Of a DNA stretch of 64,000 nt, positions 7,517-27,076 are shown one piece after another (within the stretch, counting starts at the first letter, position 1; each line of letters begins with the position of its first letter). Below the pieces are notes generated by a model. That model was not told where the DNA came from, did no database searches, and was given only the letters and a program-made list of their open reading frames with translations. The position numbers were made by a program, and so were the translations under genes. Origin of the DNA: an uncultured Eubacteriales bacterium (GTDB taxonomy: Bacteria > Bacillota > Clostridia > Oscillospirales > CAG-382); the NCBI GenBank assembly GCA_900548115.1, contig URJL01000005.1, positions 2,434 to 66,433 of the forward strand. The letters run 5' to 3'.

Positions 7517-9661
7517 GTGGGAATCATTCATGTTCTCGATAAACATACCGCCAATCTGATTGCCGCCGGCGAGGTTGTGGAGCGTCCCGCCTCCGCCGTC
7601 AAGGAAATGCTGGAAAATTCCGCCGACGCGGGCGCGTCGCGCATAACCGTCGAGATCAAAAACGGCGGCACGTCGTATTTCCGCGTGACCGACGACGGCG
7701 TCGGCATGTCCGAGGAAGATCTTCCCCGCTGTGTTCTGCGCCATGCAACCAGCAAGATCAAAGAGCCGAGCGACCTTTCGGCGATCGGAACCTACGGCTT
7801 TCGCGGCGAGGCGCTTGCCGCCATTGCGGCGGTATCCGACCTTCGCATTCTGACAAAGCGCCGCGAAGATCCGATCGGACACGTGCTGCACATCGCGGGC
7901 GGCGAGGTCCTCGAGAGCGGCGAGGCAGGCTGTCCCGACGGAACGACCATTGCCGCGTCGGACATTTTCCGCAACATTCCCGCACGCCGCAAATTTTTGA
8001 AGAAAGATTCCTCCGAGGCAAGCGCCTGCCTTGCCGTGTGCGAAAAATTCGCGCTCTCCCGTCCGCACATCGCCGTGACGCTCCTGTCCGACGGGGCGGA
8101 AAAGCTGCGCACCGAGGGAGACGGGATCTTAAAAAATGCGATTTATTCCTGCCTCGGCAAGGATTTTGCCGCAAAGCTGATTCCCGTAAATTATACACAC
8201 GAGGGCATTTCCGTGACGGGCTACATCGGAAAGCCCGAAACGGCGCGCCCGAGCCGCGGACTTCAGAACTTTTTCATCAACAACCGCTATGTCCGCTCGG
8301 GAACGATCTGCGCGGCGCTGGAGGAGGGCTACCGCGCCTTCTGCCCGATCGGAAAATTTCCCGCCGCCGTGCTTTTCTGCACGCTTGATCCGCACCGCGT
8401 GGACGTAAACATTCACCCCGCCAAGACCGAAGTGAAATTCTCCGAGGAAAAGGCGGTGTTCGAAACGGTTCTTTTCGCCGTGCGCAGTGCGCTGAACAAG
8501 GGAACGGTGTTCGAAAGAGCGCCCGCACGAACGGAAACGGATTTTTCGAAAGCCATGACCGAGAGTCTCGGAATAAAAAAAGCGCCGACGCAGTCGACCT
8601 CGCTGTACCGTCGGGAGGACGAGAAAAAAGCGGCTGTCCCGACCGAGAAAGCCGAAAGCGAAAATGAAAGCCAAACCGCAAGCGCGAGCGTGCCGGCTTT
8701 TCCGCCCGCGGCGGAAAATGTGCCGAGCGTTTCGCCCATGACGGACATGCCGCCGACGGAAAAAGTACCGAGCGTACCGCCCGTATCGGAGGTTTCGCCC
8801 ACACGAAGCGCGCCCCCCGCCCCCGAAGCCTTTTCGGCACCCGATTTCCGAAGCGCCTTTTCCGACGAAAGCGAGGGCGTTTCCGATTTTCGTTCGCCGA
8901 ATCCCGCTCCGAACGCGGTGCATACGCCGAACCTTTTCGGCAATGCTTCCGAGCCCGAGCCGTTTGTCCGCCCGAGCCTTGATCTTTCGGCGCTTTCGGT
9001 TCCGACTCCGCCGATCCACGCGGAGGAACCGCCCGCCCCACCGAGCGAGCCGATTCAGCAGACGCTCGAGCCGAGCGAGCCCGAAGAACAAAGCCCGCGT
9101 TTTCGCGTTATCGGCGAATGCTTTCACACCTTTATTTTGGTCGAGCGCGGCGACACCTTATATCTCATCGACAAACACGCGGCGCACGAACGCATTTTAT
9201 ACGAAGAGATCAAATCGTGCTCCGAGGGGCGCGGCGCGCAGATACTGCTTGAGCCGATTCGAATCCGCCTGAGCACCGAGGAATATGCGGCGCTCACGGA
9301 AAACAAAGAGCTGTTTTCCGGAACGGGCTTTCTGTTTGACGATTTCGGCGAGGGTGTGATCCTTCTGCGCTCGTTCCCCGAACATCTCGAGGTGCGCGAC
9401 CTTCCCGACATCATCACAAGCCTTGCCGCGAAGCTCTGCGAGGGCGGCGCGCATGCCGGAAGCGATCTTTTTGACCGCGCCCTCTTCACAGCCGCCTGCA
9501 AAGCGGCGGTCAAAGCGGGACAGCGCAACTCGTATCTTCAGGACGAATACATCGCAAAGAAGATCTTCTCGGATGAGGCAATCCTCTATTGCCCGCACGG
9601 AAGACCTGTGCTGACCGAATTTACCAAAGATAAGTTATACCGCATTTTCAAGCGGACATAA
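7517..9661 (+). CDS. mutL: DNA mismatch repair protein MutL
   Basis: GHKL ATPase motifs AAGEVVERPASAVKEMLENSADAG, DDGVGM, GFRGEAL. C-terminal domain with DKHAAHERILYE. Long Pro/Ser-rich linker. AGAGG lies about 8 nt before GTG 7517; the ORF-track start 7508 is an in-frame GTG sitting inside that RBS, so the start is uncertain by 9 nt. Confidence 0.93.
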   Translation: MGIIHVLDKHTANLIAAGEVVERPASAVKEMLENSADAGASRITVEIKNGGTSYFRVTDDGVGMSEEDLPRCVLRHATSKIKEPSDLSAIGTYGFRGEALAAIAAVSDLRILTKRREDPIGHVLHIAGGEVLESGEAGCPDGTTIAASDIFRNIPARRKFLKKDSSEASACLAVCEKFALSRPHIAVTLLSDGAEKLRTEGDGILKNAIYSCLGKDFAAKLIPVNYTHEGISVTGYIGKPETARPSRGLQNFFINNRYVRSGTICAALEEGYRAFCPIGKFPAAVLFCTLDPHRVDVNIHPAKTEVKFSEEKAVFETVLFAVRSALNKGTVFERAPARTETDFSKAMTESLGIKKAPTQSTSLYRREDEKKAAVPTEKAESENESQTASASVPAFPPAAENVPSVSPMTDMPPTEKVPSVPPVSEVSPTRSAPPAPEAFSAPDFRSAFSDESEGVSDFRSPNPAPNAVHTPNLFGNASEPEPFVRPSLDLSALSVPTPPIHAEEPPAPPSEPIQQTLEPSEPEEQSPRFRVIGECFHTFILVERGDTLYLIDKHAAHERILYEEIKSCSEGRGAQILLEPIRIRLSTEEYAALTENKELFSGTGFLFDDFGEGVILLRSFPEHLEVRDLPDIITSLAAKLCEGGAHAGSDLFDRALFTAACKAAVKAGQRNSYLQDEYIAKKIFSDEAILYCPHGRPVLTEFTKDKLYRIFKRT

Positions 9662-9737
9662 AACATTTCCGCCGCCGATCGGCGACAAACGGCGAATCGA
9701 ATAATCGACTATCGAAAACCATCGAAAGGAACAACGC

Positions 9738-10874
9738 ATGTATAAGCTTTTAAAACAGGAAGGAAAAGCCCGACTCGGAGAGTTTGAAACGGTTCACGGA
9801 ACCATTCACACCCCCGTTTTCATGAACGTCGGAACATCGGCTGCCATCAAGGGCGCCGTTTCCACGGGCGACCTTGAAAAGATCAAATGTCAGGTCGAGC
9901 TTTCCAACACCTATCATCTGCACATCCGCCCCGGCGACGACGTTATCCGCGAAATGGGCGGACTGCACGAATTTTTTAACTGGCACGGTCCGATCCTCAC
10001 CGACAGCGGCGGATTTCAGGTCTTTTCGCTGGCGACTCTTCGCAAAATCACCGAAGAGGGCGTTTTCTTCAATTCGCACATGGACGGAAAACGCATTTTC
10101 ATGGGTCCGCGCGAGAGCATGCGCATTCAGGCAAATCTCGGTTCGACCATCGCCATGGCGTTTGACGAATGCGTCGAAAACCCGGCGGAATATAAATATG
10201 CCAAAAACTCCTGCGACCGCACGGTGCGCTGGCTCAAGATCTGCAAAGAAGAAATGGCGCGTTTAAAAGCAGAACCCGACGCCGTAAACCCGCATCAGCT
10301 TCTTTTCGGCATCAATCAGGGAAGCACGTACGACGATCTGCGCATCGACAACATGAAACAGATCGCCGAGCTGGGTCTTGACGGCTACGCCATCGGCGGA
10401 CTTGCCGTCGGTGAATCGGCGGACGAAATGTACCGCATTATCGAGGCGGTCGAACCCTTCATGCCGAAGGATAAGCCGCGGTATCTGATGGGCGTCGGAA
10501 CGCCCGTGAACATTTTGGAGGCGGTCTATCGCGGCGTCGACTTTTTCGACTGCGTTATGCCCAGCCGAAACGCGCGCCACGGAAATCTCTTCACGTGGAG
10601 CGGGCACATGAATCTGAACAACAATAAATACGAGCGCGACAAACGCCCCATCGATTCCGCCTGCGACTGCCCCGTTTGCCGCCGCTATTCCCGCGGTTAT
10701 ATCCGCCATCTCTTCAAGGCGCGCGAAATGCTCGGCATGCGTCTTTGCGTTCTGCACAACCTGTATTTTTACAACACGCTGATGGAGGAGATTCGAAAGG
10801 CGCTTGCCGAAGGACGCTACGAAAGCTTTTACCGCGAAATGCGCGAAAGACTTGCAAAGCGCGTGGATGACTGA
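9738..10874 (+). CDS. tgt: tRNA-guanine transglycosylase (queuine insertion)
   Basis: TPVFMNVGT, LTDSGGFQV, zinc site CDCPVCRRYSRGYIRH. Confidence 0.95.
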   Translation: MYKLLKQEGKARLGEFETVHGTIHTPVFMNVGTSAAIKGAVSTGDLEKIKCQVELSNTYHLHIRPGDDVIREMGGLHEFFNWHGPILTDSGGFQVFSLATLRKITEEGVFFNSHMDGKRIFMGPRESMRIQANLGSTIAMAFDECVENPAEYKYAKNSCDRTVRWLKICKEEMARLKAEPDAVNPHQLLFGINQGSTYDDLRIDNMKQIAELGLDGYAIGGLAVGESADEMYRIIEAVEPFMPKDKPRYLMGVGTPVNILEAVYRGVDFFDCVMPSRNARHGNLFTWSGHMNLNNNKYERDKRPIDSACDCPVCRRYSRGYIRHLFKAREMLGMRLCVLHNLYFYNTLMEEIRKALAEGRYESFYREMRERLAKRVDD

Positions 10875-18941: not shown

Positions 18942-19829
18942 ATGCGCGAAGGATACACGCCCGAGCCGTATCTTGAAATAGTAAAATTTTACACGATCTA
19001 TTATAACGAGCTTCCCGCCGATTACCGCCTCGGCGGCGAGTCGCACCCGTTTTGGGAGCTGATTTACATCGACAAGGGAACGGCGTTCTGCACGGCGCGG
19101 GAGCATGAATACACCATGCGGCAAGGCAGTATTCTTCTGCACATGCCGAACGAATATCACGACATACGCGCCGACGAAAAGGATCCGCCGAATGTGGTCG
19201 TCGTCACTTTTGACTGCAATTCGGACTCCATGCGCGCCCTTTGCGGGATGCAGTGCGTTCTTCCGCAGACTCTTCGGTATCATATTGCGGAAATACTGCG
19301 CAACGCGCGGGCGACGTTTGTCATGCCGATGAAAGGAACGCTTACGCCGAGACACGACCCGCTTCCGGGCGGGACACAGATGATAAAGCTGCATCTCGAA
19401 CAGCTTCTCATCGAGCTTATCCGACGGGACGAAAGCGCCCCCTCGCGCGGCGCACCGGGCGCGGTGCGGGATGAGCTTTCGGAGCGCTGTATTCAATATC
19501 TCGAACGGCACGTATACGGAAGCGTCACCATCGCCGAGCTGTGCGCCGCCGTCGGCTACAGCCGAACCCAATTGTGTACCCGTTTTCGCAAGGTGACGGG
19601 ATATTCGGTGCTGGATTATTACGCCGAGCTGAAGCTTGCGGAGGCAAAGCGCCTTTTACGGCACGAAAATCGATCCGCCGCCGAGGTATCCGCGCTTTTG
19701 GGCTTTGCAAGTCCCTCGTATTTTTCCCGCTTTTTCGCGCGGCTGTGCGGCATGACGCCGCTGCAATACCGCACGTCGCAGTCGGACAGTCGGGACGGAA
19801 ACAGCCGAACCGACAGCATTTGCGGGTAA
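18942..19829 (+). CDS. AraC-family transcriptional regulator (cupin sensor plus HTH)
   Basis: N-terminal cupin-like HPFWELIYIDKGT. C-terminal AraC HTH: IAELCAAVGYSRTQLCTRFRKVTGYSVLDYYAELKLAEAKRLL...LLGFASPSYFSRFFARLCGMTPLQYR. Confidence 0.85.
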   Translation: MREGYTPEPYLEIVKFYTIYYNELPADYRLGGESHPFWELIYIDKGTAFCTAREHEYTMRQGSILLHMPNEYHDIRADEKDPPNVVVVTFDCNSDSMRALCGMQCVLPQTLRYHIAEILRNARATFVMPMKGTLTPRHDPLPGGTQMIKLHLEQLLIELIRRDESAPSRGAPGAVRDELSERCIQYLERHVYGSVTIAELCAAVGYSRTQLCTRFRKVTGYSVLDYYAELKLAEAKRLLRHENRSAAEVSALLGFASPSYFSRFFARLCGMTPLQYRTSQSDSRDGNSRTDSICG

Positions 19830-20121: not shown

Positions 20122-21078
20122 ATGGGTGAATATCTCACCCCCTGCACCGTGACTCTTTCGCCCGCCGTCGACGTATATCTTTCGCTTCCGACTCTTTCGG
20201 TCGGGCGGGAGAGCGAAGCGACGCTTCTCGGGCGGTACGCGGGCGGAAAAGGCTTGAACGTCTCGGCGGCGCTCGACGCCTTCGGGACGGAAAACCGTGC
20301 GTTTTGCCTTTTGGGCGAAAAAAGCGCCGCGTCGTTTTTATCCTTTCCGCACCTTCCGAAAAATCTCGTTCCGTTTTCCGCGGGCGGCTCGGTTCGCGAG
20401 AACATCACGATCAAGAGCGCCGAGGGCGAGACACGCGTAAGTCTTCCCGCCGAGACAGTCGACGAAAAGACCCTTTCGGCGTTTTTTGAAAAGATTCCGT
20501 CGGGAAAGCGCTTTGTCGCCTTTTGCGGAAGCGCTCCGCGCGGCGTTTCCGAGGATTTTTTGACCGATGCTCTGCTTTCTTTAAAAAAACGGGGCGCGCT
20601 TTTGCTGTGCGATTCCCGTTCGCTCTCGGCGTCGTCGCTCCGAAAGCTCCGTCCGTACTGTATCAAGCCGAACGAATTTGAATTTTCCGTTCTGTGCGGA
20701 AACGACGCGGAGCGCGCGGCGGAATTTTCCGAAAACGTCCTTTTGACGTGCGGCGGAAAAGAGGGCTTTTTTCTTTCGCAAACCGAAAAATTTCGCTTAA
20801 TCCCGCCGCAAATTTCTCCCGTTTCGACGGTCGGGGCGGGAGACAGCACCCTTGCCGGCTTTATCGCGGGAAAAATGCGCGGACTTTCCGACGCCGAGAG
20901 CGCCCGTCTTGCCTTTGCTTTCGGGAGCGCCGCCTGTCTTACCGAGGGAACGACGCCGCCCGAAAAAGAAGCGATCGAGGCGCTTTATCAAAAGGTGAAG
21001 ATCCGACCCGAAGGCACTTTGCACTCCGCTTTTTTAAAAGCCCGAAAACAAACGGAAAATAAAGGAGAAACGTCATGA
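20122..21078 (+). CDS. PfkB-family sugar(-phosphate) kinase (1-phosphofructokinase/tagatose-6-P kinase-like)
   Basis: TVTLSPAVDVY...GGKGLNVSAAL N-terminal signature and the C-terminal VGAGDSTLAGF signature. Confidence 0.78.
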   Translation: MGEYLTPCTVTLSPAVDVYLSLPTLSVGRESEATLLGRYAGGKGLNVSAALDAFGTENRAFCLLGEKSAASFLSFPHLPKNLVPFSAGGSVRENITIKSAEGETRVSLPAETVDEKTLSAFFEKIPSGKRFVAFCGSAPRGVSEDFLTDALLSLKKRGALLLCDSRSLSASSLRKLRPYCIKPNEFEFSVLCGNDAERAAEFSENVLLTCGGKEGFFLSQTEKFRLIPPQISPVSTVGAGDSTLAGFIAGKMRGLSDAESARLAFAFGSAACLTEGTTPPEKEAIEALYQKVKIRPEGTLHSAFLKARKQTENKGETS

Positions 21079-23042
21079 ACCGATTTTTGTCCGGTCTTTT
21101 GACCGTTCCGCTGATCGCGGCGCAGGGACTTTTAAATGTCCGACCGCCCGAACTTTCCGTCGGCGTCACCGTGATCGCGCACGGCGGCGCAAGCGATTAT
21201 ATTTTGGTGCGCCCGTCGGACAGCCCGTTTGCCGTCACGGCGGCAGCGACCAATCTTTCGCGAAGCGTGAAAAAAGAGACCGGCGTCGTTCTTTCGCAAT
21301 ACACCGACGAAAGCCTGCCGAAAGATAAAAGCTCGGTCAAAAAGCAAAAGTTCATCCGCATCGGCTTTCCCGAGGATGAAGACGCGCTTTCGGTTCCCCT
21401 CGCCTTTCGCGATTTTGCCGTTTTCACCGACGACGGCGATCTTTGCGTCACGGCGGGCAACGAAAAAGCCTACGCCGACGCGGTCGAATTTATCGCCGGG
21501 AAATATCTGCGCGACGGCAGTTTTATCGTGCCGAACACGCCGTATGTTTTCCACGACACTTACCGCTTCGAAACCCGAACGCTTTTCGGAACGCCGCTTT
21601 CCGACTGCGCACTGCTTTATGAAAACGCGGCGGGCAAGGCGCTCTGCGACGAGCTTTCCGCTCTCATCCGCGAAAACTGCGGCCGTGCGCCGCACGTTTC
21701 GGAGGCTCCCAATGCTTCCAATACCGCGGACACATATATCCGCTTCGGCGCGGGAACGGGACTTTCGAAGGCGGAATACCGCATAACGGCGGAAAACGGC
21801 GGCATTTTTCTTACCTCGCCCACGGGTGAGGGACTGCGCGCGGCATACGATCTTATGTGCGAAGCGCTGTTTCCGGATTCGGCAAAGGAGAGCTTGGAAA
21901 AGATGAACATAACGGGAAAGCTTGAAAAAACCACGGTTTACGAAAAGGACATTGCCTATCGCGCACCCCTTGCGAACACGCTTTATCGGCTGGAAAAGGA
22001 CAAAAAACTGCGCGTCGCCTACTTCGGCGGCTCGGTCACGGTCGGCTACGGTGCAAGCGACACCGAAAAATATTCGTGGCGCGCCCGCACGACGGCATGG
22101 CTGAGGGAAGCCTTTCCCGACGCGGACATCACCGAAATAAACGCCGCGATCGGCGCGACCGGCTCCTACCTCGGTTCTTTCCGCACCGAGCGGGACATCG
22201 TTTCGCAAAAGCCCGATCTTTTGTTCGTCGAATTTGCTATCAATGATGTGTACAACGGTGAAACGATAAAGAGCGCCGAGCTGCATTACGAATCGATCGT
22301 GCGTCAGGTGCGAAAGGCGCTTCCCTTCTGCGACATCGTCGCGGTCTTTACCACCGATTCGGGACGAACCGCGTCGGGCGGCGATTATATGCAGCAAAAG
22401 GGACATGACGCCATAGCGAAGCTTTATGACATTCCGTCGGTCAACATCGGACGGGCGCTGACGCGCAGCAAAAACCTCTCGGGCACGGTAAACGACGAAT
22501 GGAAAAAGTATTTTACCGACATCGTACATATGACCGACGAGGGCTACGGCGAATATGCTTCGGTGATAAAAGAATTTTTGCGCAACGAATTGCTTTTCGG
22601 CGGCGCTTCGCTCACGGAACACGCGATGCCCGATGCAAAATATGCCGAAGCGGACGTTTTGCCGCGCTATGAGGTCGCCTCAAAAGATCATCTCAAGGGC
22701 GCGAACGGCTGGCGCTTTGACGAAGGCTCGTTCCAAAATCTGCCGCTTACGCCGTATAAAGGCTTTCTTTACACAAACGAGAAAGAAAACACCCTCACCT
22801 ATACTTTCGAGGGCACTGAGCTTGCTCTGTTCCTCGGCAATTATACCGCGGGAACGATCCGTTATTCGGTTGACGGCGGTAAAGAGAAGAGCGCCGTGCG
22901 CAGCTCGATGAACAATCCGTTTGTTTTGGCAAAAGAGCTTCCGAACGGGAAACACACCGTCACGCTTTCGGTCGCCTTTTCCGACAACACAAGCACCTCG
23001 TGCAGAATCGGCGCATTTTTGCCGCGCGCGCAGGCCGACTGA
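21075..23042 (+). CDS. multi-domain SGNH/GDSL-type hydrolase
   Basis: Central SGNH domain: block I VAYFGGSVTVGYG, FVEFAINDV, block V DIVHMTDEGY (DxxH). About 300-aa unassigned N-terminal part with a hydrophobic N-terminus, and a C-terminal beta-rich tail. ATGA overlap with the upstream kinase. Confidence 0.7.
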   Translation: MNRFLSGLLTVPLIAAQGLLNVRPPELSVGVTVIAHGGASDYILVRPSDSPFAVTAAATNLSRSVKKETGVVLSQYTDESLPKDKSSVKKQKFIRIGFPEDEDALSVPLAFRDFAVFTDDGDLCVTAGNEKAYADAVEFIAGKYLRDGSFIVPNTPYVFHDTYRFETRTLFGTPLSDCALLYENAAGKALCDELSALIRENCGRAPHVSEAPNASNTADTYIRFGAGTGLSKAEYRITAENGGIFLTSPTGEGLRAAYDLMCEALFPDSAKESLEKMNITGKLEKTTVYEKDIAYRAPLANTLYRLEKDKKLRVAYFGGSVTVGYGASDTEKYSWRARTTAWLREAFPDADITEINAAIGATGSYLGSFRTERDIVSQKPDLLFVEFAINDVYNGETIKSAELHYESIVRQVRKALPFCDIVAVFTTDSGRTASGGDYMQQKGHDAIAKLYDIPSVNIGRALTRSKNLSGTVNDEWKKYFTDIVHMTDEGYGEYASVIKEFLRNELLFGGASLTEHAMPDAKYAEADVLPRYEVASKDHLKGANGWRFDEGSFQNLPLTPYKGFLYTNEKENTLTYTFEGTELALFLGNYTAGTIRYSVDGGKEKSAVRSSMNNPFVLAKELPNGKHTVTLSVAFSDNTSTSCRIGAFLPRAQAD

Positions 23043-23097: not shown

Positions 23098-23116
23098 GCT
23101 GTGCAAAGCACACAAA

Positions 23117-23150
23117 GCGGGAGAGCTTTCGCTCTCCCGCTTTTCGTTTT
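23117..23150. terminator. second convergent-gene terminator hairpin
   Basis: GCGGGAGAGC-TTTC-GCTCTCCCGC followed by TTTTCGTTTTC. Lies between the convergent + and - genes. Confidence 0.6.
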
Positions 23151-23159
23151 CATTCCGTT

Positions 23160-24401
23160 TTACAGCGTAAAGACGGTATGACGGTAAACCGTGTTTTCTT
23201 CTTCCAGCTTTTTTATGTACGCGTCGTATTCTTCGTCGCTCGTCTTGTCTTTCCATACGAGAGGCTGTCCTTCGGGACAAATAAAAGTGTTGCCGAAGAT
23301 TTTGTAATCCTTCGGAATATCACACGCGCCGCCCGATTTAAAGATCGACATATTGCGTGCATTGACAAAGGTATTGCCCGTAATTGTGATATCGCATACG
23401 GGCGTTTCGATGCCGTACATCAAAAGATGGGTCGAAGCCGTTTTATCGGGACGAACGGCATAACTCCAACCATAGCCTGATTCGATGCAAAGATTGTTTT
23501 CGAACCGACAGTTGATAAAGCCGCTTCCGGGGGTCTTTCCCGACGACCATATTTCAAAGCTGTGCTGATTGTTCCACATAATGTTGTCGGTAAAGACCAC
23601 ATTTTCCCAGCTTATATCTCCGGGATACCCCTGCATGGTGACGGCGACATCGTAGATGCCCGAGAATTTGCAATGCTCGACCGTGACAAAGCGTGAATGA
23701 CTTCCGCATTCCACGCCATTACCGTAACGGGTATTGGGAGTCGGAAAGGCTTGCAGATGCGATCCGCCGATCTCATGAAACTCACAGTGCGAGATCAGCG
23801 CATGCGTTCCGGTTCCGCAGATACCATGAGCGCCGGTACCGGTGACGACAATGTTTTCCACCTTCATGTACTGCGTAAAATTGATCCCGTTGATCTGACA
23901 GGCAAATCGAATATCCTCCGACAGCTCGGCGGGATCTTTTTCCGAATAAACATAGACAGCCTTTTCATCGCTGTAAAAATCCCATTGTGCGGAAAGCCCC
24001 TCAAGATCAAAGATCTTGTGCGGAAAGACCTTTCCCGAGACCTTTAAAAAACCGACATTGGCATTTTGATCAAAAATATTGCCCGTGATCTTGTCGGGAT
24101 TCAAAAGATCAATCTTATAAACGTTTCCCGAGACCTTTTCCCAAGCGTCGGGCTTTGCGATCTTATAAAGGGAAAGAACGGGCTTTTTACCTTCACCGTA
24201 AGTTCCGACAGCGGTGGGCGTTTCGAGACCCGTCCCCTCCGGGATCTGCAAATGACCGTAAAAAGTATCGCCGCGGCGAAGCAGCACCGTGTCTCCGCCC
24301 GTGATCGTTTCCCGAGCTTTTTTGATCGTGGCAAACGCACTTTCGGGCGAAAGACCGCTGTTTGTGTCACGCCCATTGTTCGATACGTAATAAATACTCA
24401 T
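23160..24401 (-). CDS. right-handed parallel beta-helix repeat protein, paralog 1 (no signal peptide)
   Basis: MSIYYVSNNGRDTNSGLSPESAFATIKKA N-terminus is typical of pectate-lyase-fold/CASH proteins. Repeated G-x-H/N-rich rungs (TGTGAHGICG, HCEFHEIGGSHL, RYGNGVECG, IMWNNQHSFEIW, NNLCIESGYGW). Confidence 0.75.
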   Translation of the reverse strand: MSIYYVSNNGRDTNSGLSPESAFATIKKARETITGGDTVLLRRGDTFYGHLQIPEGTGLETPTAVGTYGEGKKPVLSLYKIAKPDAWEKVSGNVYKIDLLNPDKITGNIFDQNANVGFLKVSGKVFPHKIFDLEGLSAQWDFYSDEKAVYVYSEKDPAELSEDIRFACQINGINFTQYMKVENIVVTGTGAHGICGTGTHALISHCEFHEIGGSHLQAFPTPNTRYGNGVECGSHSRFVTVEHCKFSGIYDVAVTMQGYPGDISWENVVFTDNIMWNNQHSFEIWSSGKTPGSGFINCRFENNLCIESGYGWSYAVRPDKTASTHLLMYGIETPVCDITITGNTFVNARNMSIFKSGGACDIPKDYKIFGNTFICPEGQPLVWKDKTSDEEYDAYIKKLEEENTVYRHTVFTL

Positions 24402-24440
24402 ATTTTTCCTTTTTCTTTTCCTCTCGGTTTCGTCGTCCGA

Positions 24441-25679
24441 TCAAAGAGTAAAGACCGTGTGACGGTAGACGGTGTTTTCCGTCTCCAGCTTCTTTATGTA
24501 CGCGTCGTATTCTTCGTCGCTCGTGTTTTCTTTCCAAGCAAGCATCTGTCCCTCGGGGCAAATGATCGTGTTGCCGAAAATGCGGTAATCGTGCGGGATC
24601 TTTGCCGTTCCGCCGGTTTTGAAGATCGTCATGGCGCGCGGATTGACAAAGGTGTTGCCGCTTACGGTGATGTCGCATATAGGGCAGTCCAGATGATACA
24701 TCAGAAGATGCGTGGACGCGGTTTTGTCGGGACGAACCGCGTAACTCCAGCCGTAACCCGATTCGATACAGAGATTGTTGCGGAAGCTGCAATTTACGAA
24801 ACCGCTGTTCGGCAGATTGCCGCTGCACCAGATTTCAAAACTGTGCTGATTGTTCCACATGATATTGTTGTCAAAGTGAACGTTTTCCCAATTGTGCTCA
24901 TGCGGACAGCCCTGCATCGTCACGGCAACGTCGTAGATACCCGAAAACTTGCAGTATTCCACCGTAATGTCGTGCGAATTTCCGCCGCATTCCACACCGT
25001 TTCCGTAACGGGTGTTGGGAGTCGAGAACCCTTTCAGGTGCGAGCCGCCGATTTCATGAAATTCGCAGTGCGAAATGTGCGTATACGAACCTCTGCCGCA
25101 GATACCGTGCGCGCCGGTGCCCATAAACGTAATGTTTTCGACCTTCACATACGTGCTCAGCAGCATGCAGTGGATGTTGCAGGCGATGCGGATGTCGTCC
25201 GAAAGCTCGGACGGCGCTTTTTCGGAATAGACGTACATATATTGCTTTTCGCTGAAAAAGTCCCACTGAGCGGCAAGCTTGTCGTACTCGAAAATCTTAT
25301 GGGGATAGATTTTTCCCGAGACCTTGATAAAGCCGACATTGTCGTCGCCGTCGATCACGTTTCCCGTGTACTTTGACGTATCCCAAAGGTCGATACGGTA
25401 GATATTTTCCGAAACCTTTTCCCATGCGTCCGCTTTTGCGATCTTATATTCGGAGAGGATCGGATTTCTTCCCTCGCCGTAAGCGCCGAAGGTCGTCGGC
25501 TGTTCCTCCGTTCCCATCGGGGGACGGATCTGTCCGAAAAAGGTGTCGCCGCGGCGCAGAAGAAGAGTGTCGCCGCCCTGTATCGTCTCGCGCGCTTTTC
25601 CGATCGTCTCAAAGGCTTTTTCGGGGGAAAGACCGTCGTTTGCGTCGTTTCCCGCACCGGATACATAATAAATACTCAT
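24441..25679 (-). CDS. right-handed parallel beta-helix repeat protein, paralog 2
   Basis: Collinear with paralogs 1 and 3 over the full length. Same motifs. C-terminus ...TSDEEYDAYIKKLETENTVYRHTVFTL. Confidence 0.75.
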   Translation of the reverse strand: MSIYYVSGAGNDANDGLSPEKAFETIGKARETIQGGDTLLLRRGDTFFGQIRPPMGTEEQPTTFGAYGEGRNPILSEYKIAKADAWEKVSENIYRIDLWDTSKYTGNVIDGDDNVGFIKVSGKIYPHKIFEYDKLAAQWDFFSEKQYMYVYSEKAPSELSDDIRIACNIHCMLLSTYVKVENITFMGTGAHGICGRGSYTHISHCEFHEIGGSHLKGFSTPNTRYGNGVECGGNSHDITVEYCKFSGIYDVAVTMQGCPHEHNWENVHFDNNIMWNNQHSFEIWCSGNLPNSGFVNCSFRNNLCIESGYGWSYAVRPDKTASTHLLMYHLDCPICDITVSGNTFVNPRAMTIFKTGGTAKIPHDYRIFGNTIICPEGQMLAWKENTSDEEYDAYIKKLETENTVYRHTVFTL

Positions 25680-25709
25680 CGTTTTTTCTCCTTTTGAAAA
25701 TCGGAAGGC

Positions 25710-26951
25710 TTACAGCGTAAAGACCGTGTGACGGTAGACCGTATTTTCTTCTTCCAGCTTCTTTACATATGCGTCATACTCTTCGTCGCTCGTCTTGTCC
25801 TTCCATGCAAGCGGCTGACCTTCGGGACAAATGATGGTGTTGCCGAAAATCTTATAATCCTTCGGCATTTGGCAAACGCCTCCCGCTTTAAAGACCGTCA
25901 TATTGCGTGCATTGACAAAAGTATTGCCCGTAACGGTGATGTCGCAAAGAGGACAACCGATTCCGTACAATAAAAGATGAGTCGAAGCGGTCTTGTCGGG
26001 ACGAACCGCGTAGCTCCAGCCGTAGCCCGATTCGATGCAGAGGTTGTTTTCAAAATGGCAATCGACAAAACCGGTGTCCGGTACATCGCCGCTTGACCAG
26101 ATCTCGAAGCAGTGCTGGTTGTTCCACATGATATTGTTGGTGAAATGCATATTGGTCCACGAGGTCTTGACGGGTCTGCCCTGCATGGTGATGGCAACGT
26201 CGTAAACGCCCGAGAATTTACAGTGATCGACCGTAATGTTGGCGGAGTTTGCCCAGCATTCCACGCCGTTGCCGTAACGGGTATTGGGCGTCGGGAAGCC
26301 GTTCAGCTCCGAGCCGCCGATCTCATGAAATTCACAGTTGTAAATATACGCGCCGTTCGAAACACCGTTGATACCGTGTGCGCCCGTGCCGCGGATAATA
26401 ATGTTTTCGACCTTCATGTGGGTTGTAAAAGGGATACAGCCGATCTGGCACGCGAAGCGGATGTCGTCCGAAAGCTCGGACGGGTTCTTTTCGGAATATA
26501 CGAAAACATACCGGTCGTCGTTATAAAAATCCCATTGAGCCGCAAGCTTTTCAAGTTCGAAGATCTTGTGCGGGAAGATCTTGTTCGAAACCTTCAGGAA
26601 TCCGACGTTGGTGTTGATCTCGGACGTGTTGCCCGTAAACTTTGCGGTATCGGTAAGATCAAGCTTGTAGACCTTTTCCGAGACCTGTTCCCAAGCGTCC
26701 GCATTTGCGATCTTATACTGCGAAAGAGTCGGCTTTGCGCCCTCGCCGTACGAACCGACGCTTGTCGGCTGTTCGGGAGAAATACCCGCCGGAAGCTTTA
26801 TCTGTCCGTAAAAGGTATCGCCGCAATGCAAAAGAACGGTATCGCCGCCCTTAAGAACCTCGCGAAGCTTTATAACGGTGGCAAACGCCTTTTCGGGCGA
26901 AAGTCCGTCGTTTGTGTCACAGCCCTTGTTCGATACATAATATGTACTCAT
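25710..26951 (-). CDS. right-handed parallel beta-helix repeat protein, paralog 3
   Basis: Collinear with paralogs 1 and 2. First gene of the tandem set, downstream of the candidate promoter at 27047-27076. Confidence 0.75.
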   Translation of the reverse strand: MSTYYVSNKGCDTNDGLSPEKAFATVIKLREVLKGGDTVLLHCGDTFYGQIKLPAGISPEQPTSVGSYGEGAKPTLSQYKIANADAWEQVSEKVYKLDLTDTAKFTGNTSEINTNVGFLKVSNKIFPHKIFELEKLAAQWDFYNDDRYVFVYSEKNPSELSDDIRFACQIGCIPFTTHMKVENIIIRGTGAHGINGVSNGAYIYNCEFHEIGGSELNGFPTPNTRYGNGVECWANSANITVDHCKFSGVYDVAITMQGRPVKTSWTNMHFTNNIMWNNQHCFEIWSSGDVPDTGFVDCHFENNLCIESGYGWSYAVRPDKTASTHLLLYGIGCPLCDITVTGNTFVNARNMTVFKAGGVCQMPKDYKIFGNTIICPEGQPLAWKDKTSDEEYDAYVKKLEEENTVYRHTVFTL

Positions 26952-27012: not shown

Positions 27013-27046
27013 ACAAAAAACTGGGGCGACCTTGTTCGGTCACCCC
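27013..27046 (-). terminator. intrinsic terminator downstream of folC (minus strand)
   Basis: Minus-strand RNA GGGGUGACC-GAACAA-GGUCGCCCC followed by AG-UUUUUU. The stem contains a G.U pair on the minus strand but a C.A mismatch on the plus strand, which argues for minus-strand function. Confidence 0.6.
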
Positions 27047-27076
27047 ATTATACACGGAAAAAAATCCCTTTGTCAA
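27047..27076 (-). promoter_or_regulatory. candidate sigma-A promoter of the beta-helix gene trio
   Basis: Minus strand: TTGACA (27076-27071), 18 nt, TATAAT (27052-27047). Directly abuts the terminator stem. Confidence 0.5.

Follow-up and report, generated by a model that had tools for sequence, protein, structure and literature searches.

A tandem trio of compact beta-helix proteins from an uncultured gut bacterium: candidate intracellular carbohydrate-cleaving enzymes

Results

Organisation of the trio locus

The window analysed here, a 64,000-nucleotide stretch of DNA from an uncultured Eubacteriales bacterium, carries three consecutive minus-strand genes, each encoding a compact beta-helix protein. 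The features of the locus, with positions counted along the window, are:

18942..19829, plus strand: AraC-family regulator with HTH_18 and AraC_binding domains, upstream of the PfkB and SGNH genes
20122..21078, plus strand: PfkB-family hexose(-phosphate) kinase (Pfam PfkB 1.3e-27), its stop codon overlapping the SGNH start
21075..23042, plus strand: SGNH/GDSL esterase of 655 residues, convergent with the trio and CE2_N-like in its C-terminal part (Lipase_GDSL_2 1.5e-16, CE2_N 5e-6)
23114..23143, both strands: bidirectional terminator in the gap that separates copy A from the SGNH gene, 13-bp stem with 8 G-C pairs
23160..24401, minus strand: copy A (P0001), third trio gene, intact ORF for a 413-residue compact beta-helix protein, the copy modelled with AlphaFold2
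24441..25679, minus strand: copy B (P0002), second trio gene, intact ORF for a 412-residue compact beta-helix protein
25710..26951, minus strand: copy C (P0003), first trio gene, intact ORF for a 413-residue compact beta-helix protein
27022..27047, minus strand: terminator-like hairpin with U-run at the end of the upstream folT-folC unit, abutting the trio promoter
27047..27076, minus strand: candidate trio promoter TTGACA-18-TATAAT, 12/12 match to consensus, with the start codon of copy C 96 nt downstream

A first-pass annotation had described three ORFs of 412-413 residues separated by 39 and 30 nt, which is borne out (413, 412 and 413 residues, all on the minus strand). Each gap holds a purine-rich ribosome-binding site, AAAGGAG in the case of copy B, which lies 30 nt downstream of copy C, and GGAGGA is found upstream of copy C. 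The proteins are collinear, as claimed, with a single one-residue gap; their pairwise identities over the full length are 71%, 72% and 69%, so that the earlier estimate of roughly two-thirds was slightly low. The sequence blocks then quoted (RYGNGVEC, IMWNNQH-FEIW, NNLCIESGYGWSYAVRPDKTASTHLL and the C-terminal TSDEEYDAY-KKLE-ENTVYRHTVFTL) are all present. A 254-kb scaffold from a public metagenome carries the identical arrangement, base for base, but as this scaffold may be the source of this genome it is not independent evidence.

The candidate promoter is the only 12/12 consensus site between positions 22800 and 27400. The hairpin that it abuts has a 10-bp stem (7 G-C pairs) that precedes GTTTTTTG, and ends a unit comprising folC and the gene for a folate ECF S component; the bidirectional terminator begins 17 nt past the copy A stop codon. 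These two flanking elements are the only strong terminators in the trio region. Together with the short gaps, these signals make the single transcription unit proposed earlier plausible, and the trio apparently forms one operon driven by the predicted promoter at 27076-27047. Co-transcription with the PfkB, SGNH and AraC genes does not hold, as these lie on the opposite strand.

Evolution of the three copies

All three copies are intact and under purifying selection, with dN/dS of 0.12-0.18 and dS of 1.2-1.8, in keeping with the suggestion that they have been retained. Blocks identical in amino acid sequence share only about half of their codons, indicating that conservation reflects selection and not gene conversion. 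In the phylogeny, one of the checks proposed for the triplet, the trio forms its own, lineage-specific clade (SH-aLRT 99) in which copy C branches first. A second tandem trio, from another genome (locus L005), forms a separate clade with support of 100, so tandem amplification recurs. Judged from sequence, the tandem triplication that gave rise to the trio is old and lineage-specific, and its products evolve under purifying selection without gene conversion. The companion check, synteny, gave little: neighbourhoods over 80 loci are mostly not conserved.

Fold of the compact proteins

The AlphaFold2 model of copy A (pLDDT 96.5, pTM 0.94) is a single-domain, single right-handed beta-helix, with strands in recurring threes over residues 164-376 and a C-terminal helix at residues 389-402. 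At E<=0.001 Foldseek returns 44 matches, every one a beta-helix protein, and model and search together confirm the predicted helix of the pectate-lyase/glycosidase type. The closest matches are to GH120 (3vst, E 7e-11), then GH141, GH136, GH110 and PL9; resemblance is weak throughout, with TM values of about 0.4-0.5 and identities of 9-13%, and the comparison with beta-helix enzymes thus returned only weak glycosidase and lyase matches, GH120 first.

At the sequence level no family-level match to the trio was found in Pfam, NCBIfam or the sequences of solved structures. Pfam PF13229 (Beta_helix) scores 25.6 bits for copy A and 19.3 bits for copy C, against a cutoff of 25.9, and does not match copy B; profile searches of solved structures return only GH136 enzymes and one PL9 lyase. 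Likeness to characterised families is confined to the N-terminal cap, which matches phage tail proteins too. A phage tailspike or depolymerase identity was rejected, the PHROG matches covering only the cap (residues 2-51, E>=3e-6) and the neighbouring genes being housekeeping or metabolic.

Conserved residues and a proposed active site

Conservation was assessed over 72 sequences, drawn from distant phyla and from the modules of larger paralogs encoded in this genome. Residues H192, R225, N228, E231, D251, Q257, E283 and R317 are invariant across the superfamily and kept in all three copies. N228, D251, Q257, E283, R317, N343 and N371 are kept in 72/72 sequences, E231 in 71 and H192 in 70. In the copy A model E231, D251 and E283 fall on three successive rungs, each in the third strand or immediately ahead of it. 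From conservation and strand register we propose that the active site is this row of carboxylates, flanked by H192, R225, N228, Q257, W312 and R317.

The beta-helix is also a fold of adhesins and tailspike scaffolds, and the match of the cap to phage tail proteins would suit non-catalytic binding or structural proteins, possibly exported by a non-classical route. We consider this very improbable: invariant charged and polar residues aligned on one sheet are preserved across phyla and architectures, the copies are under strong purifying selection, and the 10-14 cysteines per protein, with no export signal, fit the reducing cytoplasm. We infer instead that the proteins are catalytic.

Comparison with characterised beta-helix enzymes

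GH136 is the only characterised glycoside hydrolase family matched by sequence. The lacto-N-biosidases compared (LnbX of Bifidobacterium longum and, from gut Clostridiales, ErLnb136, RhLnb136 and the R. inulinivorans enzyme; PDB 5gqc, 6kqs, 7v6m and 7v6i) resemble the trio in their right-handed beta-helix catalytic domain of ~420 residues; 7v6m is matched at 1.6e-12 by the family profile and at 3.5e-13, over 224 columns, by the profile of the larger paralogs, and Foldseek values for GH136 range from 1.4e-9 to 1e-7 at about 13% identity and a TM of about 0.4. Membership of GH136 was nevertheless rejected, as the compact-family match is limited to the first 75-100 residues (3-77/99 of 413), and the NCBIfam LnbX model scores 16-21 bits on the trio against a cutoff of 2500. 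The catalytic Asp-x6-Asp of ErLnb136 (D568/D575, acid/base and nucleophile) has no apparent conserved counterpart in alignments of the compact family, which contain no conserved D-x6-D or E-x6-E pair; the only pair with such spacing in the larger paralogs, E295/E302, falls opposite W276/E283 of the compact family. GH136 activity also requires a helper domain or subunit, GH136-I/LnbY (PMC8106489, PMC7335108). No such helper is fused or adjacent to the trio: the proteins start at the helix cap, the 261-nt gap upstream of the trio contains no minus-strand ORF of at least 80 residues, and the trio is flanked by folC and the SGNH gene.

The closest structural match is the GH120 beta-xylosidase XylC (TM 0.53 query-normalised, 12% identity). 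This beta-helix exo-glycosidase acts on oligosaccharides; its catalytic carboxylates sit on neighbouring rungs, and a second domain helps to form the active site. GH120 membership was rejected, since there is no sequence match to XylC and the trio protein is a single domain of 413 residues, compared with 638 residues for XylC. The GH141 enzyme BT_1002 (5mqp), GH110 alpha-galactosidases (7jwf, 9beh) and PL9 lyases (5olq, 1ru4) belong to the same fold class and share a similar N-terminal cap motif, YYVS..G.D.N.G..P, with 9-13% identity, TM values of 0.23-0.49 and no profile match past the cap.

The lyases among these matches raise an alternative, that the trio are cytoplasmic enzymes acting by beta-elimination on uronic-acid substrates, the carboxylates binding a metal and R317 or R225 acting as base. 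PL1 and PL9 enzymes use a metal site and an Arg/Lys base, and the conserved E231, D251, E283 and R317 resemble this arrangement and could be compatible with such a site. The Foldseek matches include PL9 rhamnogalacturonan lyase, Pel9A, K1 capsule lyase, alginate lyases and the RbmB lyase; the Pel9A-like PF22842 (17.8-22.9 bits, cutoff 25.2) and the NCBIfam PelN model match the cap only; one relative carries a capsule-lyase (K1-lyase) C-terminal domain; and GH78-like proteins near family members would be consistent with rhamnogalacturonan-type substrates. However, the top five structural matches are all hydrolases (GH120, GH141, GH136). No gene of the unsaturated-uronate pathway (GH88/GH105, KduI/KduD, KdgK/KdgA) was seen beside the trio, and the neighbouring PfkB protein is a 1-phosphofructokinase-type kinase (NCBIfam 1-PFK/hexose kinase subfamily 1.6e-54, under the curated cutoff), not KdgK. 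A lyase is therefore possible yet unlikely, and a glycoside hydrolase is the more likely activity.

Absence of export signals

The trio had been noted to have neither signal peptide nor anchor, and this was confirmed from start codons, open frames and hydropathy. Each ORF starts at the first ATG, GTG or TTG after the upstream stop, directly in the helix cap; as the open frames reach only 10-15 codons further upstream, a signal peptide could not be accommodated. Hydropathy at the N-termini is negative, and no 19-residue window in the trio exceeds 1.2 on the Kyte-Doolittle scale, indicating no membrane segment.

Among the best 120 homologues, 103 likewise begin directly at the helix cap, while signal peptides are present in a clade of eleven that includes Kiritimatiellae. 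Members of this diderm-type clade (Kiritimatiellae/Verrucomicrobia-type) thus have them whereas Clostridia members do not, which is the usual periplasm-versus-cytoplasm split for oligosaccharide-processing enzymes. The premise that such proteins are normally secreted proved weak: intracellular GH136 beta-helix enzymes that lack a signal peptide have been published from gut Clostridiales (PMC7335108), and the Clostridia members of this family lack one too. Its absence from the trio is consequently less odd and has precedent.

Family distribution and larger paralogs

The family comprises about 1,500 clusters (50% identity) at E<=1e-30, with 444 loci among species-representative genomes, and occurs in human and ruminant gut Clostridia, Kiritimatiellae, Verrucomicrobia, Bacteroidota, Paenibacillus and Arthrobacter. 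It has no specific Pfam or NCBIfam model, and no characterised member was found in the literature. The wider superfamily is strongly expanded in the genus, with 16 matches in a 2.1-Mb genome. The genome studied here encodes a fourth compact copy unlinked to the trio, besides about 11 distant paralogs; signal peptides are present in many of these and S-layer-homology (SLH) repeats in several (Pfam-confirmed in one, C2_20044; several others read by eye).

These larger paralogs (466-2464 residues) carry the module C-terminally, many behind a signal peptide or lipoprotein signal. Their ~420-residue module is homologous to the compact family from end to end (hhalign 100%, E 5e-52, 394 columns, 28% identity) and keeps its invariant residues; they are equally uncharacterised. 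Elsewhere in the family the module is fused to an SGNH domain (P0132) or to a second module (P0124).

The latter fusion bears on whether the trio forms an obligate hetero-oligomer, one enzyme and not three specificities. Tight linkage, probable co-transcription and the need of GH136 enzymes for a second subunit (PMC7335108) would accord with this, as would the C-terminal 27 residues of the trio, which are identical at 25 of 27 positions despite being the least conserved segment across the wider family. Yet most genomes carry one to four scattered copies, single-copy genomes exist (G004), and the fourth copy here is unlinked. Each trio copy, moreover, has the full invariant residue set and none resembles a degenerate scaffold subunit, and we regard obligate oligomerisation as improbable.

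Genomic context

The neighbourhood survey covered the 80 loci, with a domain scan of 141 neighbours; the most frequent neighbour cluster was seen at 6 of the 80. The suggested link to the SGNH esterase stood: at three loci from the same genus (L021, L022 and L026) an orthologue (42-46% identity) is found two genes away from a family member, beside a CE7 (AXE1) esterase, SLH-bearing relatives are found at L042, L052 and L053, and the SGNH fusion noted above joins the two in one protein. The adjacent esterase is a probable functional partner of the trio, going by gene neighbourhood and this fusion. A PfkB gene is also found near a family member at L002. No transporter gene adjoins the trio.

Overall, the domains met most often among the 141 neighbours are GT1/GT4 glycosyltransferases (9 of the 141), with DUF1972 also among the most frequent. 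These, a five-locus neighbour cluster of Bacteroidota, and the WbsX-type and LytR_cpsA_psr neighbours at L005 and L006, respectively, could indicate that the trio trims or recycles the cell's own glycans in the cytoplasm, as precursors of cell wall or exopolysaccharide, instead of serving nutrient catabolism; the heavy investment of this genome in surface proteins with the related module points the same way. In the individually inspected Clostridia loci, however, recurrent neighbours are catabolic (SGNH and CE7 esterases, GH31, PfkB, GH78-like proteins and a binding-protein-like lipoprotein, the last two each in 6 loci of the survey), and no glycosyltransferase lies near the trio in the window. 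For the trio we judge this role even less probable than obligate oligomerisation; the GT1/GT4 neighbours and the Bacteroidota cluster hint at polysaccharide biosynthesis or remodelling by some family members.

Discussion

The reading we favour, and consider probable from sequence and model, is that the trio are tandemly triplicated compact beta-helix proteins of a large uncharacterised family, active as cytoplasmic carbohydrate-cleaving enzymes on imported oligosaccharides. These substrates are probably acetylated and possibly contain rhamnose. Outside the cell, exported larger paralogs, some of them SLH-bearing, would act on the polymer; the resulting oligosaccharide fragments would be imported and finished inside by the compact copies, alongside esterases that remove acetyl groups, the adjacent SGNH protein among them.

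A bolder extension is that the compact proteins are founders of a new GH (or lyase) family: helper-independent, cytoplasmic and single-domain, with an E-D-E carboxylate ladder, forming in this genus the inner tier to a large set of exported paralogs that carry the module, of which some are SLH-anchored, and with three copies providing three linkage or decoration specificities for one complex, acetylated glycan. This full scheme is possible, though we hold it only tentatively. The compact beta-helix family is a candidate new enzyme family, most likely of intracellular sugar-chain-cleaving enzymes on the sequence and model evidence.

The trio itself is an ordinary lineage-specific expansion. Assigning an activity to it would annotate thousands of genes now labelled 'hypothetical' and could add a CAZy family, and the wider superfamily probably defines the diet of these uncultured gut bacteria.

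Organisation of the beta-helix gene trio

Three tandem minus-strand genes, here called copies C, B and A, encode compact beta-helix proteins, and the three collinear full-length reading frames described in the first-pass annotation are borne out. The features of the trio and its surroundings are as follows.

25710-26951, minus strand, copy C, maximal ORF, 413 aa
24441-25679, minus strand, copy B, maximal ORF, 412 aa
23160-24401, minus strand, copy A, maximal ORF, 413 aa
27076-27047, minus strand, consensus promoter (TTGACA-18-TATAAT), 12/12 consensus match
23114-23143, both strands, bidirectional terminator after copy A, 13-bp stem
Upstream of the trio, folT-folC, an unrelated folate unit
Downstream of the trio and convergent with it, PfkB-SGNH, with an AraC regulator before them

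Over their whole length the proteins align with just one gap, of one residue (amino-acid identity 71% for A/B, 72% for A/C and 69% for B/C), and the genes are separated by gaps of 30 and 39 nt, each containing a purine-rich ribosome-binding site. The promoter directly abuts the hairpin and U-run that end the folT-folC unit. The end of the promoter is the exact start of the folC terminator stem (27047-27022, followed by the U-run; region 27013-27076, minus strand), and a transcript starting about 7 nt past the -10 box, without the 5' stem arm, would escape termination. Hairpins inside the trio are weak, with 5-6 pairs. The promoter, the placement of the terminators and the weak internal hairpins make it plausible that the trio is a single transcription unit, as predicted from the DNA sequence.

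An assembly artefact or collapsed repeat was rejected, as DNA identity between the copies is just 71-73%; the same arrangement is also found on a 254-kb scaffold, possibly from the same source as this genome. Intact reading frames, purifying selection and retention of the invariant residues likewise rule out pseudogenes or degenerate copies.

Evolutionary history of the trio

All pairs of copies have a dS of 1.2-1.8 and a dN/dS of 0.12-0.18, indicating that the copies are old and under purifying selection. The near-identical amino-acid blocks noted earlier are present (codons 301-330, for example), with only about half of their codons identical. This attributes the blocks to selection; gene conversion as their cause was rejected, since synonymous sites there are about as diverged as elsewhere. 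Identity is slightly raised over the last 30 codons of the trio. The last 27 codons and stop (23160-23243, 24441-24524 and 25710-25793) encode a C-terminal helix-strand, TSDEEYDAYIKKLEEENTVYRHTVFTL, that is identical at 25 of 27 positions across the trio; this segment has the highest DNA identity (0.79-0.86) and is the least conserved segment in the wider family. The segment may represent an interface that only the three copies share, or a short tract of conversion.

In a maximum-likelihood tree of 124 sequences, which included three larger paralogs from the same genome as outgroup and was drawn midpoint-rooted, the trio forms one clade (SH-aLRT 99) with the topology (C,(A,B)), the outcome of the phylogeny that had been proposed as a check. 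P0011 and P0008/P0009, which are its closest homologues in other assemblies, fall in its sister group. Close relatives (57-61% identity) stand as a tandem doublet in a same-genus genome, G002, and at locus L018. A second tandem trio (426, 424 and 412 aa), from an unrelated assembly, falls in its own clade with support of 100, indicating that tandem amplification has happened repeatedly in the compact, single-domain family to which the trio belongs. This second trio (locus L005; 5988-9813 of contig JAZMCJ010000188.1, GCA_052830245.1, a Clostridia MAG) adjoins ADP-ribosylglycohydrolase, WbsX-type and GFO_IDH_MocA genes. In a search of 40 relatives, 8 of the 9 further same-genus genomes proved to carry the compact family, at 1-4 copies each, whereas the 31 genomes searched from 30 other genera yielded no member.

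Fold and comparison with known families

From an alignment of 68 sequences, AlphaFold2 modelled copy A as a single right-handed beta-helix that has a helix (389-402) and a strand at its C-terminus (pLDDT 96.5, pTM 0.94); together with Foldseek, this model upholds the fold that had been proposed from sequence motifs. Foldseek against the PDB matched only beta-helix carbohydrate enzymes and tailspikes, all at 8-13% identity and with TM scores mostly of 0.2-0.5. The best match was the GH120 enzyme XylC (3vst; 7e-11, TM 0.53), with GH141 BT_1002, GH136 lacto-N-biosidases (6kqs, 7v6m, 5gqc), GH110 and PL9 rhamnogalacturonan lyase also among the best, and capsule lyases, alginate lyases and GH28 ranked after PL9.

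Sequence matches are centred on the N-terminal beta-helix cap. Pfam gave only a generic Beta_helix match near threshold and a Pel9A-like match confined to the cap, the NCBIfam matches (LnbX and PelN) were cap-only and far under cutoff, and profile searches of solved structures found GH136 enzymes (best 1.6e-12) and a PL9 lyase over the first 75-100 residues only. GH136 is the closest known family by sequence, with a likeness limited to the cap. However, GH136 requires the GH136-I/LnbY helper, which the trio lacks, and its Asp-x6-Asp catalytic pair has no conserved counterpart in alignments of the compact family. GH120 is closest by structure, but XylC has 638 residues whereas the trio proteins are single-domain proteins of 413 residues, and there is no sequence match. 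The features tested do not support membership of GH136, GH120 or PL9. A prophage tailspike is ruled out by the gene neighbours and by PHROG matches that are confined to the cap. A literature search for a characterised member found nothing specific to the compact family.

Distribution and architectures of the wider family

A word-indexed homology search retrieved 260 proteins, and when 1.84 billion representatives were searched exhaustively with a profile, 1,508 matched at E<=1e-30, 6,173 at E<=1e-10 and as many as 18,500 at E<=1e-3. A scan of species-representative genomes gave 444 loci, from gut Clostridia MAGs (human and ruminant), Kiritimatiellae, Verrucomicrobia, Bacteroidota, Paenibacillus and Arthrobacter. 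First-look candidates numbered 7-53 per same-genus genome, mostly >17, and <=7 in most other genera. The beta-helix module of about 420 aa occurs in the following architectures.

Stand-alone, about 410-480 aa, with or without a leader
Module followed by a 200-300 aa extension of unknown type
P0132, 734 aa, signal peptide, one module followed by an SGNH esterase domain (VLCWGDSITEG and DVHLNEQGY blocks)
P0124, 855 aa, signal peptide, two complete modules in tandem
P0150, K1-capsule-lyase domain at the C-terminus
Very large multi-domain proteins

In the genome carrying the trio (2.14 Mb), 16 matches were obtained. Besides the trio itself, they include a fourth compact copy located on a different contig (C6:6780-8033, 54% identity), and the rest are distant paralogs, about eleven in number (28-37% identity). 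Read by eye only, the surroundings of the fourth copy (C6:1-16000) include an AraC-like regulator, an HpcH-type aldolase, a GH29-like fucosidase and a glycyl-radical enzyme pair; uvrB follows immediately downstream. The distant paralogs, on contigs C37, C24, C2, C17, C12, C21, C7, C38 and C9 (loci L011-L016), are 466-2464 aa long and have the module as their C-terminal domain, and many of them start with a signal or lipoprotein peptide. Pfam confirmed SLH repeats in one, and such repeats were recognised by eye in several more. Their cap is immediately preceded by a short, conserved helical motif (..MKKDILNS.N..). Compact and larger forms are homologous end to end (profile-profile probability 100%, E 5e-52, 394 columns), and a Pfam scan of three larger paralogs gave no match within the module.

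Candidate active site

Conservation was assessed on 72 sequences comprising the compact family, members from distant phyla and the modules of the larger paralogs of this genome. N228, D251, Q257, E283, R317, N343 and N371 (compact family numbering) are kept in 72/72, E231 in 71/72, H192 in 70/72 and R225 in 66/72; copies A, B and C each retain all ten. In the copy A model three consecutive rungs each have one of E231, D251 and E283 within or just ahead of their third strand (228-232, 252-258 and 280-286), so that these residues stack on one sheet. Stacked carboxylates are catalytic in beta-helix glycosidases and act as metal ligands in pectate lyases, and we infer that these three residues form a candidate active site, of either a hydrolase or a lyase. 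Differences between the copies are concentrated in one turn per rung, including the turns right after the E231, D251 and E283 strands. These turns are also variable family-wide, and their differences are therefore weak evidence of differing specificity among A, B and C.

Absence of export signals

Each trio reading frame begins at the first ATG/GTG/TTG past the upstream stop, with the frame open only 10-15 codons further upstream, and the N-termini (MSIYYVS...) are hydrophilic, with no 19-residue window exceeding a Kyte-Doolittle value of 1.2. Start positions and hydropathy thus agree with the reported lack of a signal peptide. Each protein contains 10-14 cysteines. Among the 120 best homologues, 103 begin directly at the cap and classical signal peptides occur in a Kiritimatiellae-containing clade of eleven. 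Such a split, with the periplasm as the location in diderms and the cytoplasm in monoderms, would be typical of oligosaccharide- rather than polymer-processing enzymes.

The first-pass annotation considered an unsecreted beta-helix enzyme unusual. That oddity is weakened by the intracellular, signal-peptide-less beta-helix GH136 enzymes documented in Roseburia (PMC7335108), which make it unsurprising in itself to find a glycosidase of this fold in the cytoplasm of a gut Clostridium. Overall, the observation made in that annotation is confirmed and its interpretation is supported in part.

Gene neighbourhood

The PfkB protein belongs to the 1-phosphofructokinase type of hexose kinases, with a score under the curated cutoff. 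Given this type, a KdgK-type reading, which would have favoured a lyase pathway, was rejected. The SGNH protein (21075-23042, 655 aa) has a CE2_N-like C-terminal part and an unassigned N-terminal part of some 300 residues, for which the orthologue at L021 gives a weak Glyco_hydro_20b-like match. The hydrophobic N-terminus of the SGNH protein, MNRFLSGLLTVPLIAAQGLL, is a possible signal peptide; with one, this protein would lie outside the cell, unlike the trio.

Partners were sought in two ways: every ORF of 100 aa or more in 80 loci was assigned to a cluster, and Pfam domains were tallied over 141 flanking proteins. Neither gave a conserved operon partner, no neighbour cluster being common to more than 6 of the 80 loci. 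A 650-aa SGNH orthologue (42-46% identity) occurs at L021, L022 and L026 beside a CE7 AXE1 esterase, SLH-bearing SGNH relatives at L042, L052 and L053, and GH78-like alpha-L-rhamnosidase proteins in six loci; GH31, GH127 and AP_endonuc_2 also recur. A 490-aa binding-protein-like lipoprotein lies beside family members in 6 of the 80 loci (L018, at 8681-10153, L023, L027, L031, L088 and L090). The L031 counterpart has a weak SBP_bac_1 match and the L018 protein no Pfam match; three homologues (70-75% identity) are found in the trio's own genome, on contigs C57, C35 and C12. It may be an orphan oligosaccharide-binding protein.

These recurrent neighbours and the module-SGNH fusion favour catabolism of acetylated oligosaccharides as the role of the Clostridia clade. 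Overall, the domains seen most often among the flanking proteins are GT1/GT4 glycosyltransferases (9/141), and one five-locus neighbour cluster falls in Bacteroidota loci; in the wider family, some proteins may instead work in loci for polysaccharide biosynthesis.

On the best reading, lineage-specific tandem duplication produced three co-transcribed genes for active enzymes that cleave glycans in the cytoplasm and belong to an uncharacterised beta-helix family with a distant relation to GH136. The trio does not represent a novel type of system; as a candidate for a new CAZy family, it is a reasonable choice for enzyme discovery.
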